Source: Anaerolineales bacterium | GTDB lineage: Bacteria > Chloroflexota > Anaerolineae > Anaerolineales > UBA6668 | Length of the DNA: 64,000 bases | Reading direction: 5' to 3' | Assembly (NCBI GenBank): GCA_020630175.1 | Contig: JAHDBW010000003.1 | Coordinates: 11,982-75,981 of the forward strand | In this document: one piece after another, positions 20,189 to 29,014 of the stretch | How the letters are laid out: each line of letters opens with the position of its first letter | How positions within the stretch are numbered: position 1 is the stretch's first letter | Notes under the pieces: generated by a model | The model's database searches: none | What the model saw: only the letters and a program-made list of their open reading frames with translations | What the model was told of the DNA's origin: nothing | Made by a program: the position numbers and the translations under genes

Positions 20189-21898
20189 CTACAGGTACCC
20201 TTCATCGAAATCACTTTTAGCACTTTCATAGGCAGTTTGCTGGTCGTCTTCATTTAGATACCCAACCGCACGATAAAGCGTTTCGTCATAGTCGCGGGTT
20301 TTGATCACAACTGGCATCGGCACTGCATGGCCTAATATCAATGCTTGCTGTTGCGTATCTAGCCGGGCTAACACTTCACGTAGTGAGCTTGCGCCACTAA
20401 CCCCAGAGAACACTGCGCGAATATCAGCTTCGTTATCAAGCAGGGCGGTGACGCGCGTGCCGATCTGGCTCATGACTTCATCATCGATTCCGCTTGGGCG
20501 CTGATCTACGACTAACAAAGTGACGTTGTACTTGCGTAGCTCACGGGCAATCGTGCCAAAAATTGTGTGTTTTGCAATTTCTGGATCAAGAAACTTGTGC
20601 GCTTCTTCGATCACAATCATCAGCGGTTTGGGTTGCGCGCCTTTTTGGGTTGTCGCCTTGTTTTTCGCCTCAACATAACGCTGGTGAACGCGGCGCGTGA
20701 GGTAATTTGCAACCAGCATATAGGCGGGTAGATTATCCCCATGCTTGCCAAATTCGAGCACGACACTGGTGCCATTGGTGAGCTTGTCGAAGATTTCGGT
20801 AACAACATTGTTGCTACTTTTTTCAACGAGAAAATCCATGCGCCGGAATAGTTCAAACTTCCGTTGGATAGCACTCAACGTGCCTTTGACCAACATGCCT
20901 TCATCAATAATCGTGTCGATTTCGTCACTGCCTTTTTCATCAAGTAACTTGGCGACCCAGTCTTTGCCTAATTTGCGGCGTAAATAATAGAGTGCGCCCG
21001 TTTGCACGTCGGACAGGTTCAGCATGCTGCTGAGCATTTCTACATCGGCGGGCTCAATATCTGAATATTGAATTTGGAATTCACCTGAAATTGTGTTGTT
21101 CCGCGCGCGCGATGTTTCTGCATCCAAGGTGTATAGGCTAGGGCGATTGGACGCAAGGATCTGGGTTAGCCCTTTCCACGTTTTGCCACGCTCATTCGTG
21201 ATTTCCCAGCCATAATCGCTGTGCATGTCAAAAATCAGACAAGAGGCTTTTTGCTTTGCAATCACGGCGGCTAACAAGGTCCGGGTGATAAAGGATTTCC
21301 CGGTCCCGCTCTTGCCAAACACGCCTGAAGACCGTTCTACAAAGCGATCTAGATCAAGGTTGACCTTGACGCCATCCATATCCAGCGGTGACCCGATGTA
21401 AAAGTGGTCGTCATCTTCTTCACCAAAGACTTGGTTTACGTCCTCTTCAGTGGCTTTGAAGACCGGTGAAAAGTGCGCTGGAATGGTCTTGTTAGGACGC
21501 GGTTCTTTGGCGTCTTCTTCTAACATCAACATTGGTGAGATGTTGGCGCGACCATAGGCGACGGTTGCGCGATAAATGTCCGCTAAGAATGGGCTGCTTG
21601 GGTCTGGTGGCGTTTGCTCAATGGCTGGATTGGTGTTATCTAAGATGATGTCCGTCACAATTGAGAAGAACTTCCGCTTCGTAAGCCCTTGCGCCACAAC
21701 GTAACGCCCAACGGCCATGTCTTCAATGGTTTGGCCAACGGCAGAACTGCTGTCTAGTTTGACCGTAATGCCCTTAGAAAGCGAACCGCCAACCACAACG
21801 CCGAGGCGTACGCGCGCTTCCTCACTGGCAGTGTCATTTTCTAATCCGATGGGGCGATTGTCTTCATCGCGTGGTAAAAAATCGTCTAAGTCGCTCAT
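20189..21898 (-). CDS. herA: HerA/FtsK-superfamily ATPase (DUF87-type)
   Basis: N-terminal barrel-like segment, Walker A GKSGTGKS, Walker B LMIVIEEAH, and LLVVDQRPS. Confidence 0.8.
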   Translation of the reverse strand: MSDLDDFLPRDEDNRPIGLENDTASEEARVRLGVVVGGSLSKGITVKLDSSSAVGQTIEDMAVGRYVVAQGLTKRKFFSIVTDIILDNTNPAIEQTPPDPSSPFLADIYRATVAYGRANISPMLMLEEDAKEPRPNKTIPAHFSPVFKATEEDVNQVFGEEDDDHFYIGSPLDMDGVKVNLDLDRFVERSSGVFGKSGTGKSFITRTLLAAVIAKQKASCLIFDMHSDYGWEITNERGKTWKGLTQILASNRPSLYTLDAETSRARNNTISGEFQIQYSDIEPADVEMLSSMLNLSDVQTGALYYLRRKLGKDWVAKLLDEKGSDEIDTIIDEGMLVKGTLSAIQRKFELFRRMDFLVEKSSNNVVTEIFDKLTNGTSVVLEFGKHGDNLPAYMLVANYLTRRVHQRYVEAKNKATTQKGAQPKPLMIVIEEAHKFLDPEIAKHTIFGTIARELRKYNVTLLVVDQRPSGIDDEVMSQIGTRVTALLDNEADIRAVFSGVSGASSLREVLARLDTQQQALILGHAVPMPVVIKTRDYDETLYRAVGYLNEDDQQTAYESAKSDFDEGYL

Positions 21899-22482
21899 AG
21901 TAAGCTCTCCAAGCGGCGTAAGATGGTGTCCAGACGTTGGAAGTCGTTCCCCATTAACTGGGCTAAATATTGCCCAGCGGTGCGTAGATATTGCGCCCGA
22001 TTTGGGTGGGCTTGCGCGGCTTGTTCTAGGACGCGCACGGTTAGTTCATCTGTGGGGGCGTCACTGGCTTGGAAGATCAACCTTAGAAAGTTGAAATCAC
22101 TTGTGAGCGCGGCAATTTCGGTATGTTCGCACAGCGCAATGTGGCTCAGCGTGAGCGGCGGTTGCGGTGGCAAGCCCGTGCGTACTTTTGTGCCTTGCAT
22201 ATAGCCAAGCGTTAGCACGCTTACCTCAATCGGCATTTGACGCTGCCGCTGATCTTGAATGATTTCAATCGGCGTGTCTTGATTGCCAACAATCTGCCGC
22301 ACAAGGTCATCATCTTCTAAAACAATGTTATAGATGGTGCCAATGGCGTGCGCAGTGCCGTTTTGAATAGGAACTTTTACAAATGCACCAAAATGGGGCA
22401 TCTCTGGTTTAGGAATAGCACAGCCAAAGGTGAAGCTCTGAATAGAGCTATGTAATAGCTGCCCGATTTGAATAGGCGACAT
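21895..22482 (-). CDS. 195-aa protein of unknown family, N-terminus HAS-barrel-like
   Basis: ATGA overlap with herA and a 5-nt gap after nurA. The N-terminal ~60 aa follow the same hydrophobic/Gly pattern as the HerA N-terminus. Confidence 0.6.
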   Translation of the reverse strand: MSPIQIGQLLHSSIQSFTFGCAIPKPEMPHFGAFVKVPIQNGTAHAIGTIYNIVLEDDDLVRQIVGNQDTPIEIIQDQRQRQMPIEVSVLTLGYMQGTKVRTGLPPQPPLTLSHIALCEHTEIAALTSDFNFLRLIFQASDAPTDELTVRVLEQAAQAHPNRAQYLRTAGQYLAQLMGNDFQRLDTILRRLESLL

Positions 22483-23717: not shown

Positions 23718-23785
23718 GTCTCAGAACACGCGTTCGTATTATAGGCGAAATTTCATAATCTGGATAGGCGGTGAGTACTCCGCGT

Positions 23786-23803
23786 TTATAACAAGGTTAT
23801 AAC
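23786..23803. promoter_or_regulatory. operator-like site 1: TTATAAC-aagg-TTATAAC
   Basis: Lies between divergent -10 boxes: TATAAT at 23825-23830 (+) and TATAAT (reverse complement of 23738-23743) for nurA. One of three copies in the window. Confidence 0.55.
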
Positions 23804-23824
23804 TATGCATGCCTTGTAAATCAC

Positions 23825-24037
23825 TATAATACCCGCGCATCATTTAGTTGTACCCATGATGAAGTAGTGTTCGGCCTTGGCCGAGAGAGGATTCTTTTCG
23901 GAATGACACAACCGATATGGTTCAACAGCAGCAGCTTATAAATGCCCTTGGATGAGGGAAGTTGCCGGACAGTTGCCATCGATGTTTTGGTCTTAGCTTG
24001 ACCGCTAGAGCGCATTGTCTTTTGACAATGCGTTTTT
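23825..24037 (+). ncRNA. candidate small transcription unit (sRNA or 12-codon sORF mRNA)
   Basis: Perfect TATAAT 21 nt after site 1. Then a CUUG-loop hairpin plus GAGAGAGGAT box, ATG 23903 to TAA 23941, ending at a 9-bp-stem terminator with T5. Confidence 0.35.
24011..24037 (+). terminator. intrinsic terminator
   Basis: CGCATTGTC-TTTT-GACAATGCG followed by TTTTT. No A-run upstream, so it is plus-strand specific. Confidence 0.7.
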
Positions 24038-24073
24038 AGATTCTGATTCTGTTGATGGTTGGCGGAGGTGCTT

Positions 24074-24259
24074 ATGTTTTATAACAAACTTATAACAGCA
24101 ATGCTAAAGATCTCTCTCTATAATCAATCACGACACACTCACAGGGGCTTTCCAGCTATTTTTTGTTTAGATGCGGCTTTAAACGCCGAGAGAGGATCTG
24201 AATTGATGCGGCGGAAAGACTTCCTAACTATCCGATTTGATCACAACAATCTTTTGTAA
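24074..24259 (+). CDS. candidate 61-aa ORF (uncertain)
   Basis: Perfect SD GGAGGTG 3 nt before ATG 24074. However, the ORF contains operator site 2 and a TATAAT box and has no recognisable family. Confidence 0.25.
   Translation: MFYNKLITAMLKISLYNQSRHTHRGFPAIFCLDAALNAERGSELMRRKDFLTIRFDHNNLL
24079..24096. promoter_or_regulatory. operator-like site 2: TTATAAC-aaac-TTATAAC
   Basis: Followed after 22 nt by a perfect TATAAT (24119-24124). Same architecture as site 1. Confidence 0.55.
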
Positions 24260-24609
24260 TCACAAAATGTAAATATGCGTTACGACCTATTACAGCGGGT
24301 TTATGTTTCTAGCAACAACAGAGAGAGGCGTTGTTATGAATATTAGATCAGATGTAACCGTTGTAACACGAAGATCGATAGTGTGGTTTATGTTTCCTGC
24401 CAATATATAAGTGGCATAGAGAGGGGAATATAAAACTGCGCAGCTTTCAATAGCGATAGCTTAGAAACGCTCTAAACCAGAGAGGCTATTGGGCAGTGGG
24501 CTGAATGCTACGATCATTCACATATCAATCAGATTGTTATTACTAAGGCGCGGCGTGATCATCTGTGCTTGAGTATCCAGTTGTATTTTAAGAGAACTCA
24601 AAGGTATTT

Positions 24610-25923
24610 ATGAAATTGCTAACTAAATTGAAGCTACAGTTAAGTGTGCTCCTGGTTGTACTAGTGGCAATCTTTGCTGCACCGGTGCTTGCTGCGCCTG
24701 CGGCACAAGACTCGGTTAAGGCAACAACAGAGTATGTTGTGCAAAGTGGAGACAATCTATCCCACCTTGGACGGCGGTTTGGGATGCACCCAAGCGTTAT
24801 CATCGGCGCTAACCCGCAGTTGGTCTTTCGTCCAAACGTGTTGATTCCTGGCGAAACGCTCATCATTCCCGGTGAACATTTTGTAGGGACTGACTCCGTT
24901 GCAGACGTGCTCGCAAGCGATCCGCGCTTGTCTACGTTCCTTATTGCGGCACGCACTGCAGAATTGTTAGACGATTTGGATTATGTGGGGCGATACACGG
25001 TTTTTGTTCCAACAAATGCTGCATTTCAACAGCTTTCATCAAGTGCACGTGGTGACCTGTTGAATAACTTGGCATTTATGAACACGATTGTGCATTACCA
25101 CATTGTGCCAGAGCGTTACACAATGGCAGAGCTTGCTAATCAAAGTGCCGTGGCGTCTTATTCAGGCGCAGGCATTAGCGTGACCGGATCTGGGTCAGCA
25201 TTAGCGGTCAATGGTGTTCCCATCAGTGCGGCAAGCAGTATCGAAACGTCTAACGGCGTTGTCTACCTGCTCCCGGCACTGTTACCATTGCCAGATGATG
25301 CCCAACTCACTACTGACGCAACAACAATTGACTTTGCTTCAACATTTGATGTCAACACAGCGGGCAATGCTACGGCTGTCCAAGCTGAAATTGCTGACGT
25401 TGCTGAGGCATTAGAAGAGGGTGCGGAAACAGATACAGAAGTCCTTGGGGTTGCGCTGCCAACACCTGCCAGCACGACTAACCAAGCGCTGACAGTGGCT
25501 ACAGCCAGCTTGTCTGGGAGTAACCTACGGGTTGCACCAAATTCTGTTGTACTGAGCTGTGGTTCCTTATCAGTTTCATTAAGCGATGTCTTACAGTCAC
25601 TTAGTGGGCCGCTTAGCATAAATACCCTAGATGTTGCATATGTGCATTACCATAATGGATTTAGCCGTGGCAGTACGGAGGCTTGTGTCACCTTCACTGC
25701 TGAGGTTGCGGGGGGTAAAGCGCCACATCGAATTTTGATCAACAACATTCCGATTGTGCCGCGCAATGCCCACCTGAATTCACGGGTCGGGGGCGAATTT
25801 GGTGACATTGAATTTGACGTATTGGCAGACTGCAATCAAGCTTACTCATTTGCACTTACAGTAGAAAGTGGAGATGGTCAGCAAGCCACGCGTGTCTTCA
25901 ACCAGTTCATTCCTTGCCCATAG
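24610..25923 (+). CDS. secreted LysM + fasciclin (FAS1) domain protein
   Basis: Signal peptide; LysM (YVVQSGDNLSHLGRRFG); FAS1 motifs (TVFVPTNAAFQQL, NGVVYLL); Cys-containing C-terminal domain. Confidence 0.8.
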   Translation: MKLLTKLKLQLSVLLVVLVAIFAAPVLAAPAAQDSVKATTEYVVQSGDNLSHLGRRFGMHPSVIIGANPQLVFRPNVLIPGETLIIPGEHFVGTDSVADVLASDPRLSTFLIAARTAELLDDLDYVGRYTVFVPTNAAFQQLSSSARGDLLNNLAFMNTIVHYHIVPERYTMAELANQSAVASYSGAGISVTGSGSALAVNGVPISAASSIETSNGVVYLLPALLPLPDDAQLTTDATTIDFASTFDVNTAGNATAVQAEIADVAEALEEGAETDTEVLGVALPTPASTTNQALTVATASLSGSNLRVAPNSVVLSCGSLSVSLSDVLQSLSGPLSINTLDVAYVHYHNGFSRGSTEACVTFTAEVAGGKAPHRILINNIPIVPRNAHLNSRVGGEFGDIEFDVLADCNQAYSFALTVESGDGQQATRVFNQFIPCP

Positions 25924-25978
25924 CGTGTAAGCAACACTCTTTGTGCAGTTGAAAGACCGTACAATTGAATATCGATCT

Positions 25979-26010
25979 AAAAAGCGCACCTAGCTGGGTG
26001 CGCTTTTTTG
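25979..26010 (+). terminator. intrinsic terminator
   Basis: GCGCACC-TAGCTG-GGTGCGC followed by TTTTTT. Confidence 0.7.
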
Positions 26011-26023
26011 TTATTATGCCTGC

Positions 26024-26410
26024 ATGGCAAACACATTTTCTCAATTTGTAACGTTTATTTATGTTAGTGATCTGAAGGCGTCTGCGGCGTTTTATGGCGG
26101 GCAACTTGGGTTAGAGTTAGTTTTAGATCAAGGCAGTTGCTATATTTTTCGCGTGGCTGGCGATGCGTTCTTAGGGGTTTGTGAAACAAAAAATGCCTTC
26201 ACAAACCGTGAAGGCATTATCATAACGCTCGTTTCAGAGGCAGTAGCGGATTGGGCGCTGCAATTACAAAAGCAGGGCGTTGTAATTGAAAAAGGGCCGT
26301 TACTCAATGCGCAATACAATATTTACCATTGCTTTTTGCGTGACCCCGATGGCTACTTGATTGAAATCCAACAGTTTCTAGATCCAGCTTGGCCAGCGCC
26401 GCTTACTTGA
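26024..26410 (+). CDS. VOC/glyoxalase-family protein
   Basis: 128 aa, VOC-like pattern (FVTFIYVSDLKASAAFY ... LRDPDGYLIEI). Confidence 0.75.
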   Translation: MANTFSQFVTFIYVSDLKASAAFYGGQLGLELVLDQGSCYIFRVAGDAFLGVCETKNAFTNREGIIITLVSEAVADWALQLQKQGVVIEKGPLLNAQYNIYHCFLRDPDGYLIEIQQFLDPAWPAPLT

Positions 26411-28459: not shown

Positions 28460-28807
28460 TTAACTGGCCAATTGGCGTGGGTGATGTAAACCGCTCATTG
28501 CGTCAACGTCAGCAGCAAGTTTTTCCTGCTGTTTAGGGCTAAGCGTGTGCCATTTGCCAACGATTTGGCGTAATGTTGGATCTGGACGTAAAAGCCCTAA
28601 TACATCATAGACTTCAGGCCCTAAGGTTTCTGCAAGATGGTCAACATGCCGACCAGCTGGCACAACCTTGCCATTCATCCAACGGCTTAGATTTGCCCCG
28701 CTTGTGTTGAGGTAATCAGCAAAGTGGCTCGCGGATCTGGCATGATCACGGTGTTGTTGCCACTCTTCATATTTCTCTTGTAACCAGCGACTAAATGATA
28801 TGGACAT
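28460..28807 (-). CDS. XRE-family helix-turn-helix regulator, probably leaderless
   Basis: HTH FADYLNTSGANLSRWMNGKVVP. ATG 28805-28807 lies 6 nt after a TACAAT -10 box (reverse complement of 28814-28819). The track ORF starts at GTG 28822. Confidence 0.7.
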   Translation of the reverse strand: MSISFSRWLQEKYEEWQQHRDHARSASHFADYLNTSGANLSRWMNGKVVPAGRHVDHLAETLGPEVYDVLGLLRPDPTLRQIVGKWHTLSPKQQEKLAADVDAMSGLHHPRQLAS

Positions 28808-28856
28808 GGCGCGATTGTACACGAGTGTTTTGCCGTTGTTGACCCACTTTTAAGGC

Positions 28857-28874
28857 TTATAACGGACTTATAAC
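28857..28874. promoter_or_regulatory. operator-like site 3: TTATAAC-ggac-TTATAAC
   Basis: Lies 37 nt upstream of the TACAAT -10 box of the XRE gene. Identical half-sites and 11-bp period as sites 1 and 2. Confidence 0.55.
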
Positions 28875-29014
28875 GCAACGTGTAACGCCATACAAACGCG
28901 TTCTTTCTTAAAGAACTCATTTATCGATTTTACCTTTAGAAACTGTTAGAAAAACCATAACTTTTCTAATTCTTCACACAACATTTTTGTACCGCATTTT
29001 AGGCAACAAATTGT

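Follow-up and report, generated by a model that had tools for sequence, protein, structure and literature searches.

We analysed a 64-kb stretch of an Anaerolineales genome (contig JAHDBW010000003.1; the whole stretch is called the window below) and in particular the 892-nt spacer (23718–24609) between the divergent genes for NurA (minus strand) and for a LysM-fasciclin protein (plus strand). The spacer contains five copies of the heptamer AGAGAGG (boxes 1–5, starting at 23884, 24189, 24322, 24418 and 24479), all on the plus strand and inside 602 nt. A preliminary description had reported these boxes with spacings of 305, 133, 96 and 61 nt, and a recount returned the same positions, strand and spacings. 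It had left open whether they were ribosome-binding sites of a small-peptide array or binding sites on a long 5′ leader of the LysM-fasciclin gene, preferring an RNA-level or regulatory role. This preference is borne out, as boxes 1–4 are kept in two further genomes and the helices flanking them covary. Judged from its sequence, the region is a previously undescribed structured RNA, comprising a small RNA gene and the LysM-fasciclin leader, without an Rfam family.

The AGAGAGG cluster and two probable tandem units

The AGAGAGG cluster is not a chance occurrence. The window holds six copies on the plus strand, the sixth (12598) within a long minus-strand open reading frame (ORF), and none on the minus strand, and whole-window shuffles gave an expectation of 2.2 copies in 128 kb (both strands). 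In 20,000 dinucleotide-preserving shuffles of the spacer, AGAGAGG occurred 0.06 times on average and three times at most, none reaching five copies; in a looser test, some 7-mer occurred at least five times in 17 of 3000 shuffled spacers. General abundance of the motif or a lack of conservation, which the preliminary description had named as grounds for abandoning it, was not what we found: the rest of the window holds hardly any copies of the motif, and the region persists in other genomes.

As comparators we used two syntenic loci from Anaerolineales metagenome-assembled genomes (MAGs), L002 (JAHDBS010000050) and L003 (JAHDIM010000002), obtained by a protein-guided scan with one genome per species. 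Their LysM-fasciclin proteins are 68% identical to that of the window, and the two are close to each other, with 90% amino acid identity. Both loci keep the two operator doublets, the third operator, the −10 hexamers and the terminator described below, together with four AGAGAG(G/A) boxes each at positions syntenic with boxes 1–4, and AGAGAGG is found nowhere else in them (both strands, 9.3 kb each). The third-codon identity of the adjacent gene between the window and L002/L003 is 0.45, indicating that neutral sites are close to saturation, and blocks of the spacer are 65–90% invariant in all three genomes.

Based on these data the spacer appears to hold two tandem transcription units. A repeat search revealed a duplication with a period of ~294–305 nt that covers three items and not only the 13-mer GCCGAGAGAGGAT already noticed at boxes 1 and 2 (found at 23880 and 24185): TTATAAC-N4-TTATAAC recurs at 23786 and 24079, and TATAAT at 23825 and 24119. 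The duplicated operator/−10 modules were absent from the preliminary description, as was a twice-repeated three-helix element. TTATAAC-N4-TTATAAC occurs only three times in the window (23786, 24079 and 28857), and since TTATAA is its own reverse complement, it reads as a 17-bp operator TTATAA-N5-TTATAA, denoted O1 to O3. The first unit appears to consist of O1, the −10 box of promoter P1, a ~205-nt small RNA (sRNA1) with box 1 and a conserved intrinsic terminator (T1), and the second of the same operator (O2) and the −10 box of promoter P2, followed by a ~480-nt leader with boxes 2–5 that runs into the LysM-fasciclin gene. The earlier proposal of a single long LysM-fasciclin leader is thus retained for boxes 2–5, with box 1 assigned to a separate promoter-to-terminator unit.

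The ends of sRNA1 were placed from the −10 box and the terminator. Its predicted order is a conserved 5′ end (GCAUCAU), the box-1 module, three-helix element A, a small hairpin and T1. In all three genomes T1 has the predicted form of an intrinsic (Rho-independent) terminator, a stable hairpin followed by UUUUU; the counterparts in L002 and L003 have other stem sequences of similar stability (−17.8 and −19.1 kcal/mol), with a U run after each. T1 was not picked up by a simple terminator scan, and it is the sole conserved hairpin-plus-U-run in the spacer; the same search found no conserved terminator inside the ~480-nt leader. Because the hairpin and U run follow the first unit, we take the stretch from P1 over box 1 and element A to T1 for the gene of a free-standing small RNA of ~205 nt. 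The stretch from T1 to O2 is not conserved among the three genomes, which fits two separate units.

The distance from operator to −10 box is 39 nt at P1 and 40 nt at P2, the same in all three genomes, placing the operator centres ~43–44 nt upstream of the presumed starts. An operator centre there is the typical position for an activator that overlaps the −35 region in bacterial promoters. No −35 hexamer, expected at a spacing of 16–18 nt in a sigma-70-type promoter, is recognisable at P1 or P2, and a promoter consensus scan reported nothing there. The layout suggests that the promoters rely on a DNA-binding dimer and would be compatible with activator dependence.

Two further observations concern the P2 region. 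The spacer between O2 and the P2 −10 box (24099–24118; 3511–3530 in L002 and L003) is strongly conserved (GCTAAAG.TCT.TC), beyond the need of a plain spacer, and may mark a second protein contact. In addition, the P2 spacer segment AGATCTCTCTCT (24108–24119) is nearly complementary to box 2 and its flank GAGAGAGGATCT (24188–24199), so that box 2 could possibly be masked in transcripts reading through from P1; this segment is not kept in L002 or L003 (TTCTGTCCTT).

Predicted display of the boxes and the three-helix element

For boxes 1–4 the AGAGAG core is invariant in 12 of 12 cases across the three genomes; 11 of the boxes continue with G as the seventh base and one, box 4 of L003 (AGAGAGA), with A. 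Two settings occur in the predicted folds: boxes 1, 2 and 4 directly adjoin a small inner hairpin on their 5′ side and the 3′ arm of an outer helix on their 3′ side, and box 3 occupies the loop of a single hairpin. The GC hairpins previously placed directly 5′ of box 1 (CGGCC-TT-GGCCG, 23872–23883) and box 2 (GCGGC-N7-GCCG), as well as the AACAAC/GTTGTT stem enclosing box 3, were seen again in our analysis.

The sequences of these helices change between the genomes. The inner helix of box 1 is CGGCC/GGCCG in the window, CGGC/GUCG in L002 and CGG/CCG in L003, and the consensus fold of box 2 has outer pairs at columns 36–44/71–79 and inner pairs at 47–49/60–62. The box-3 stem changes from AACAAC/GUUGUU in the window to CAUGAC/GUGAUG in L002 and GACG/CGUC in L003, with the box remaining in the loop. 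For box 4 both helices covary and are exchanged completely, the outer one being UUAUGUUUCC/GGGAAUAUAA in the window, GAAAUUAUUG/CAAUGGUUUC in L002 and UUGCUGAUGU/ACAUUAGCAA in L003, and the inner one UGCCA/UGGCA, UUGCCAA/UUGGCAA and GCUGAA/UUCAGC, respectively. Constrained folds in which the box was forced to be unpaired were feasible for all 12 boxes at a cost of 0–5.1 kcal/mol; the cost was ~1 kcal/mol or less in 7 of the 12 and 2.2–5.1 kcal/mol for all three copies of box 1, box 4 of the window and box 3 of L003. Such an invariant tract, predicted to be single-stranded and framed by helices that covary freely, is the hallmark of a site that is presented on an RNA scaffold and recognised by its sequence.

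A second repeat in the preliminary description, the 12-mer GGTTTATGTTTC, is present at 24298, its other copy beginning at 24385 and not at 24386. It is specific to the window, where it provides the outer-helix 5′ arm of both the box-3 and the box-4 module, the pairing partner being in each case a GAAUAU located 3′ of the box; as a shared outer-helix arm it marks a local duplication of the module. The related copy described at 24071 (CTTATGTTTT) does exist, merely as the flank of the second operator.

The three-helix element, ~65 nt in length, occurs twice per genome, 28–40 nt downstream of boxes 1 and 4 (elements A and B), and its six copies can be aligned. It comprises helix P1, an internal loop UCAAUAG/GGGCAGU, a 9-bp helix P2, a bulge AGAAAYG and the hairpin P3. 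With a covariance model built from the six copies (R1), element A of the window is the most divergent one, scoring 84 bits versus 97–109 for the others. Standard pairs occupy 94% of the cells across the six copies, compared to 37–58% when the pairing partners were slid by 1–3 columns. Compensatory changes are seen in 9 of the 18 pairs, and the observed values were reached by none of 500 shuffles. Four pairs are mainly G–U or U–G, which would be mismatches on the other strand, indicating that the plus-strand RNA is the folded species. The element thus displays the generic features of a structured RNA, compensatory helices together with strand-defining G–U pairs.

In element B, box 5 (24479–24485) makes up the 3′ strand of P3 and the first part of the 3′ strand of helix P2. 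L002 has GGAGAAG at this position with a compensating CUCCA on the other arm. Being a covarying helix arm, box 5 matches the motif incidentally or secondarily, and it does not stand as a fifth conserved box.

Third operator, neighbouring genes and distribution

The third operator, O3, lies beside an opposite-strand gene for a small helix-turn-helix (HTH) protein, 4.3 kb from the boxes. The protein is 86% identical across the three genomes. Residues 19–63 match Cro/C1-type HTH families (Pfam HTH_3/HTH_31) in all three orthologues with 14.8–22.7 bits, below the cut-off of 27. A PDB sequence search gave only the HTH of a HigA-2 antitoxin (E = 0.06), and an AlphaFold model calculated from the three sequences was unusable (predicted local distance difference test score, pLDDT, of 52). 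By adjacency only, this protein is the best candidate binder of O1–O3. A third plus-strand promoter of the P1/P2 design at O3 was ruled out, with no −10 box at the expected distance, and from the sequence a role of O3 as operator for the HTH gene on the minus strand is the better fit.

Around O3, the minus strand carries a conserved TACAAT 6 nt before the ATG of the HTH gene and TCAACA 17 nt further up (28807–28842). The HTH gene may be leaderless, in which case O3 would sit directly upstream of the −35-like TCAACA. The spacer from the HTH gene to the 3′ end of a β-galactosidase gene (28780–28960; 8140–8330 in L002 and 8240–8430 in L003) shows 82% mean column identity, more than the P1 and P2 regions in the three genomes, and the conservation extends ~90 nt past O3 on the plus strand (GCAAC.TGTAACG...TCTTAAAGAACTCA...GTTAGAAAA).

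On the other side of the boxes, NurA is the first gene of a minus-strand operon that continues with a 195-aa protein and HerA. O1 is also 69 nt upstream of the NurA start, which is preceded by a conserved TATAAT (23743–23738, minus strand), and a regulator of O1 could also act on the operon of NurA, the 195-aa protein and HerA. The ~195-aa protein (21895–22482, minus strand) has no Pfam match. A protein of this kind is likewise encoded between NurA and HerA in a distant relative with a NurA of 44% identity (L010, 11312–11908), and it looks like a conserved third member of the operon.

The family is real but very narrow. Among ~15 billion catalogued proteins, the LysM-fasciclin protein falls into just two clusters at 90% and the HTH protein into one of three members, and neither was found outside the three genomes. 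The next-closest NurA (44% identity) adjoins a 124-bp spacer without the locus. A scan with R1 found no further copy of the three-helix element in the window or in any fetched locus. Searching metagenomes with TTTCAATAGCG-N25-50-TGGGCAGTGG yielded 6 matches and searching viral contigs with a slightly looser element pattern 11, all in coding sequence or by chance and scoring 12–14 bits with R1 versus 84–109 for the true copies; a box-2 pattern had no match in viral contigs. At gathering thresholds, Rfam 15 had no match anywhere in the window. When the three orthologous spacers were searched at E ≤ 10, only scattered noise from eukaryotic small nucleolar and long non-coding RNA families came up, with no family common to them. 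A literature search on AGAGAGG and on small RNAs of Chloroflexi found nothing relevant. The only other public contig with an identical LysM-fasciclin gene (L001; Logan contig SRR14415275_273132, 1795 nt) corresponds to ~24360–26150 of the window and begins in the P2 leader between boxes 3 and 4.

Table 1 Observed and predicted features of the locus in window coordinates
Feature	Position	Strand	Sequence or composition	Basis and remarks
Operator O1	23786–23802	+	TTATAA-N5-TTATAA (TTATAACAAGGTTATAA)	Invariant in L002 and L003; centre ~43 nt upstream of the presumed P1 start
P1 −10 hexamer	23825–23830	+	TATAAT (TATACT in L002 and L003)	Putative promoter
Putative sRNA1	23837–24040	+	~205 nt	Alignment and consensus fold of three orthologues; conservation profile
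Box-1 module	23872–23890	+	Inner hairpin CGGCC-UU-GGCCG, then AGAGAGG (23884–23890), predicted unpaired	Box invariant
Element A (P1-P2-P3)	23916–23980	+	CAACAG and GGACAGUU instead of CAAUAG and GGGCAGUG	More divergent copy; R1 84 bits, unit A 23871–23995
Predicted terminator T1	24005–24039	+	GCGCAUUGUC-UUUU-GACAAUGCG, then UUUUU	−19 kcal/mol, z = −5.7
Operator O2	24079–24095	+	TTATAACAAACTTATAA	Half-sites invariant in three genomes
P2 −10 hexamer	24119–24124	+	TATAAT	Identical in all three genomes
Putative LysM-fasciclin mRNA 5′ leader	24131–24609	+	~480 nt	Conserved blocks
Box-2 module	24165–24203	+	Outer helix GUUUAGAU/AUCUGAAU, inner hairpin GCGGC-N7-GCCG, AGAGAGG (24189–24195), predicted unpaired	Consensus and constrained folds
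Box-3 module	24311–24337	+	AGAGAGG (24322–24328) in the loop of AGCAACAAC/GUUGUUA	Stem replaced in relatives
Box-4 module	24388–24434	+	Outer helix UUAUGUUUCC/GGGAAUAUAA, inner helix UGCCA-N9-UGGCA, (U)AGAGAGG (24418–24424), predicted unpaired	Both helices covary
Element B	24441–24503	+	P1 CAGCUU/GGGCUG, loop UCAAUAG/GGGCAGU, P2 9 bp, bulge AGAAACG, P3	R1 109 bits, unit B 24405–24516
Conserved block beside the ribosome-binding site	24562–24609	+	UGCUUGAGUAU...GAGAA...AAGGUA..UAUG	50–70% three-way invariant
LysM-fasciclin gene	24610–25923	+	437 aa	Pfam Fasciclin 5.5e-24, LysM 2e-05
Small HTH protein gene	28460–28807	−	115 aa	Candidate regulator of O1–O3; start corrected by alignment to the ATG at 28807
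Operator O3	28857–28873	+	TTATAACGGACTTATAA	~50 nt upstream of the opposite-strand HTH gene; conserved in L002 and L003

Interpretation and relation to known systems

On balance, we lean towards the view that the spacer encodes two related structured regulatory RNAs, specific to this lineage, with AGAGAGG loops that are bound by a putative trans-acting factor. A dimeric DNA-binding protein, for which the best candidate is the Cro/C1-like HTH protein with the same operator at its own gene, would act at P1 and P2. P1 would yield the free-standing ~205-nt small RNA ending at T1, and P2 the LysM-fasciclin mRNA with its ~480-nt leader. Both RNAs would carry the box module, a single-stranded AGAGAG(G/A) in a 3′-side bulge or a hairpin loop (one in the small RNA, three in the leader), and one copy each of the ~65-nt three-helix element with its invariant loop UCAAUAG/GGGCAGU. 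Since they share both motifs and the operator, the small RNA and the leader would be co-expressed and act on the same factor. The AGAGAGG tracts would serve as sequence-specific docking sites for this factor, most likely an oligomeric RNA-binding protein reading AG repeats, for example with an Hfq-type distal face. The factor would then control translation or stability of the LysM-fasciclin mRNA, and the co-regulated small RNA may compete for it or deliver it. Hfq of B. subtilis binds (AG)3A on its distal face (PMC3287200), which makes an Hfq-type protein a concrete candidate.

Direct pairing of the small RNA with the LysM-fasciclin start was also considered and discarded, as the duplex search returned only meaningless full-length duplexes; an 8-nt complementarity spotted by eye, AUUUAGUU with AACUAAAU, is confined to the window and absent in L002 and L003.

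Several points weigh against the pair of regulatory RNAs. We infer P1, P2, the transcription starts and the transcript ends from sequence, and likewise the identity of the DNA-binding regulator, the RNA-binding factor and the sponge or competition relation. No gene for an RNA-binding protein was identified in the 64 kb of genome covered, and the 1–3 boxes per RNA are far below the number in classical protein-sponge RNAs. The HTH assignment is tentative, lying below the Pfam thresholds and with an unusable structure model, and the spacing of operator and likely −10 box at the HTH gene differs from that at P1 and P2. The locus is carried by three genomes only, two of them close, and the covariation hence rests on ~4 independent sequences (two lineages times two paralogous copies). 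Finally, an ATG follows box 1 after 12–13 nt in all three genomes, in frame with FNS codons, and a short ORF in the small RNA could be translated from it.

This last point leads to the reading of the boxes as Shine–Dalgarno (SD) sites for short ORFs, encoding either micropeptides or a leader peptide whose translation through element A would decide on termination at T1. We regard this as unlikely. It would account for the conserved ATG and for the order of promoter, SD site, short ORF and terminator, which resembles an attenuator, and AGAGG-type purine tracts do precede some real genes in the window. The ORFs listed in the preliminary description (MTQPIWFNSSSL, MRRKDFLTIRFDHNNLL and MNIRSDVTVVTRRSIVWFMFPANI) are present, but their start, length, sequence and frame are not conserved across the three genomes. 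For the ORF after box 1 (sORF1), the predicted peptide has 12 aa in the window and 25 aa in both relatives; L002 and L003 differ at four nucleotides within it, each of them a non-synonymous change in the P3 loop. After boxes 2 and 3, the ORFs of the relatives have another start, length and sequence or are missing; the ATG after box 2 moves from +10 to +22, with unrelated peptides. Box 4 has no following ATG in two genomes and one just 2 nt downstream in the third, and in the window two stop codons break up the ORF that extends across box 4 and element B in L002 and L003. The frame in which the invariant UGGGCAGUGG is read varies among the copies. No box combines an ATG 5–10 nt downstream with a conserved ORF, and only box 1 has a conserved ATG at all. 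Furthermore, the 3′ arm of the outer helix starts directly after each box, a complete second promoter stands between T1 and the gene, and an SD-like sequence within 20 nt of the start is missing from most of the window's 52 long ORFs, with only a handful showing GAGG- or GGAG-type tracts. Antisense ORFs across element A, present in each of the three genomes (63, 51 and 73 aa), were rejected as non-homologous in frame, since a 2-nt indel shifts the frame and the seemingly shared tripeptides arise from different nucleotides. Taken together, the comparison of the three sequences rejects the peptide array and supports a role at the RNA level.

Slightly less likely still, in our estimate, is that the 65-nt element is a ligand-sensing aptamer of a new riboswitch-like class, with the AGAGAGG modules accessory to its fold or to an expression platform. 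An invariant internal loop between covarying helices is typical of aptamers, one copy precedes T1 and the other lies in the leader upstream of a gene for a secreted or surface protein, and in the small RNA GGGCAG and the 3′ strand of helix P1 can pair instead with a segment just before T1. For the window copy, and likewise downstream of element B, this alternative pairing is however not clearly kept, and boxes 2 and 3 have no adjacent element. Moreover, the element is found beside one gene only, in three genomes, the R1 and pattern scans having added no more, and no candidate ligand can be proposed.

Lower again we place the possibility that the boxes are antisense seeds that pair in trans with a CU-rich, CCUCUCU-like RNA, such as the 3′ tail of 16S rRNA. 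The boxes are predicted to be accessible, an identical exposed motif in several copies is a common seed design, and AGAGAGG can pair with a CCUUUCU tail of 16S rRNA if one G–U pair is used. Yet CCTCTCT is absent from the plus strand of the window, and known seeds acting at ribosome-binding sites are C/U-rich and not SD-like. The window contains no rRNA.

That the cluster has no function, being low-complexity sequence, a relic of local duplication or a set of DNA-level protein sites, is hardly credible: the resemblance of box 1 plus element A to box 4 plus element B and the 12-mer common to the box-3 and box-4 modules of the window do speak for local duplication, but the boxes are invariant where synonymous sites are near saturation, their flanking helices covary and use G–U pairs as expected of RNA rather than DNA, and local shuffles never reach five copies.

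The short-ORF, ligand-sensing and antisense explanations are each weaker than the pair of factor-binding regulatory RNAs. An extended form of the latter seems to us improbable: a self-contained new system in which a Cro/C1-like regulator drives a small RNA and a leader, both presenting AGAGAGG on a bulged two-tier helix as a hitherto unknown RNA-recognition code, together with a new 65-nt aptamer-like element, and with the small RNA as a decoy that sets surface LysM-fasciclin expression in filamentous Anaerolineales. Within such a system, the 65-nt element could be a new riboswitch class or the site of an RNA-binding protein.

Regulatory RNAs are almost unknown in Chloroflexota, and in Anaerolineales especially, because these organisms are mostly known from metagenomes. 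For a lineage known in this way the anatomy of the locus is unusually clean, and it would constitute a compact, testable circuit of a candidate regulator with three operators, a small RNA, a related leader and two covariation-backed RNA motifs. If the AGAGAGG bulge is a docking site for a protein or the ribosome, it would represent a new RNA-recognition motif in a phylum in which most genes seem to lack SD sequences. The significance is limited by the very narrow distribution, with three MAGs among ~15 billion catalogued proteins and the scanned contig sets.

Among known systems, riboswitch aptamers and orphan leaders share with the three-helix element an invariant loop within covarying helices and the placement of one copy before a terminator and one in a leader; they differ in that the element here comes without a ligand, a demonstrated conserved switching helix or an Rfam family and has a narrow distribution. 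The loop consensus of PyrR leaders, which we take to be ARUCCAGAGAGGYU, resembles box 5 with its flanks (CCAGAGAGGCU), and both are purine loops in a leader, protein-binding in the PyrR case. This likeness failed the tests made of it: no PyrR family matched at E ≤ 10 in Rfam in the three genomes, no pyr genes lie downstream, box 5 is the unconserved box, and boxes 1–4 have other flanks.

For the promoters, the closest parallel is provided by Cro/C1 systems. At PRM, lambda cI is a phage-type repressor-activator of the Cro/C1 kind acting at a 17-bp operator. Both cases feature a 17-bp operator with palindromic half-sites near −43, the lack of a −35 box and a copy of the operator at the regulator's gene; here, the setting is chromosomal and not a prophage, and the HTH assignment is sub-threshold.

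The CsrB/RsmY/RsmZ RNAs with their GacA-type upstream site resemble the locus in overall design. They combine a short repeated purine motif, single-stranded in loops or between hairpins, with a free-standing small RNA that has an intrinsic terminator and a palindromic upstream promoter site, and the motif is also found in an mRNA leader. In contrast, their motif is A(N)GGA and not AGAGAG(G/A), it occurs 7–22 times compared to once in the small RNA and three times in the leader here, and they have no counterpart of the three-helix element; no Rfam match was obtained here at E ≤ 10. GGA follows the box in only 3 of 12 cases (boxes 1 and 2 of the window and box 2 of L002), so that the boxes do not conform to the CsrB/Rsm motif.

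For the boxes themselves, the distal-face sites of Hfq (PMC3287200) offer a comparison by sequence alone. The boxes also keep their G positions, which Hfq of B. subtilis tolerates changing. What they have in common with these sites is an (AG)3 core in every box, single-stranded in the predicted folds as an Hfq site calls for, the invariant A positions of the consensus from systematic evolution of ligands by exponential enrichment (SELEX), and the presence of sites in both a U-tailed small RNA and an mRNA leader.

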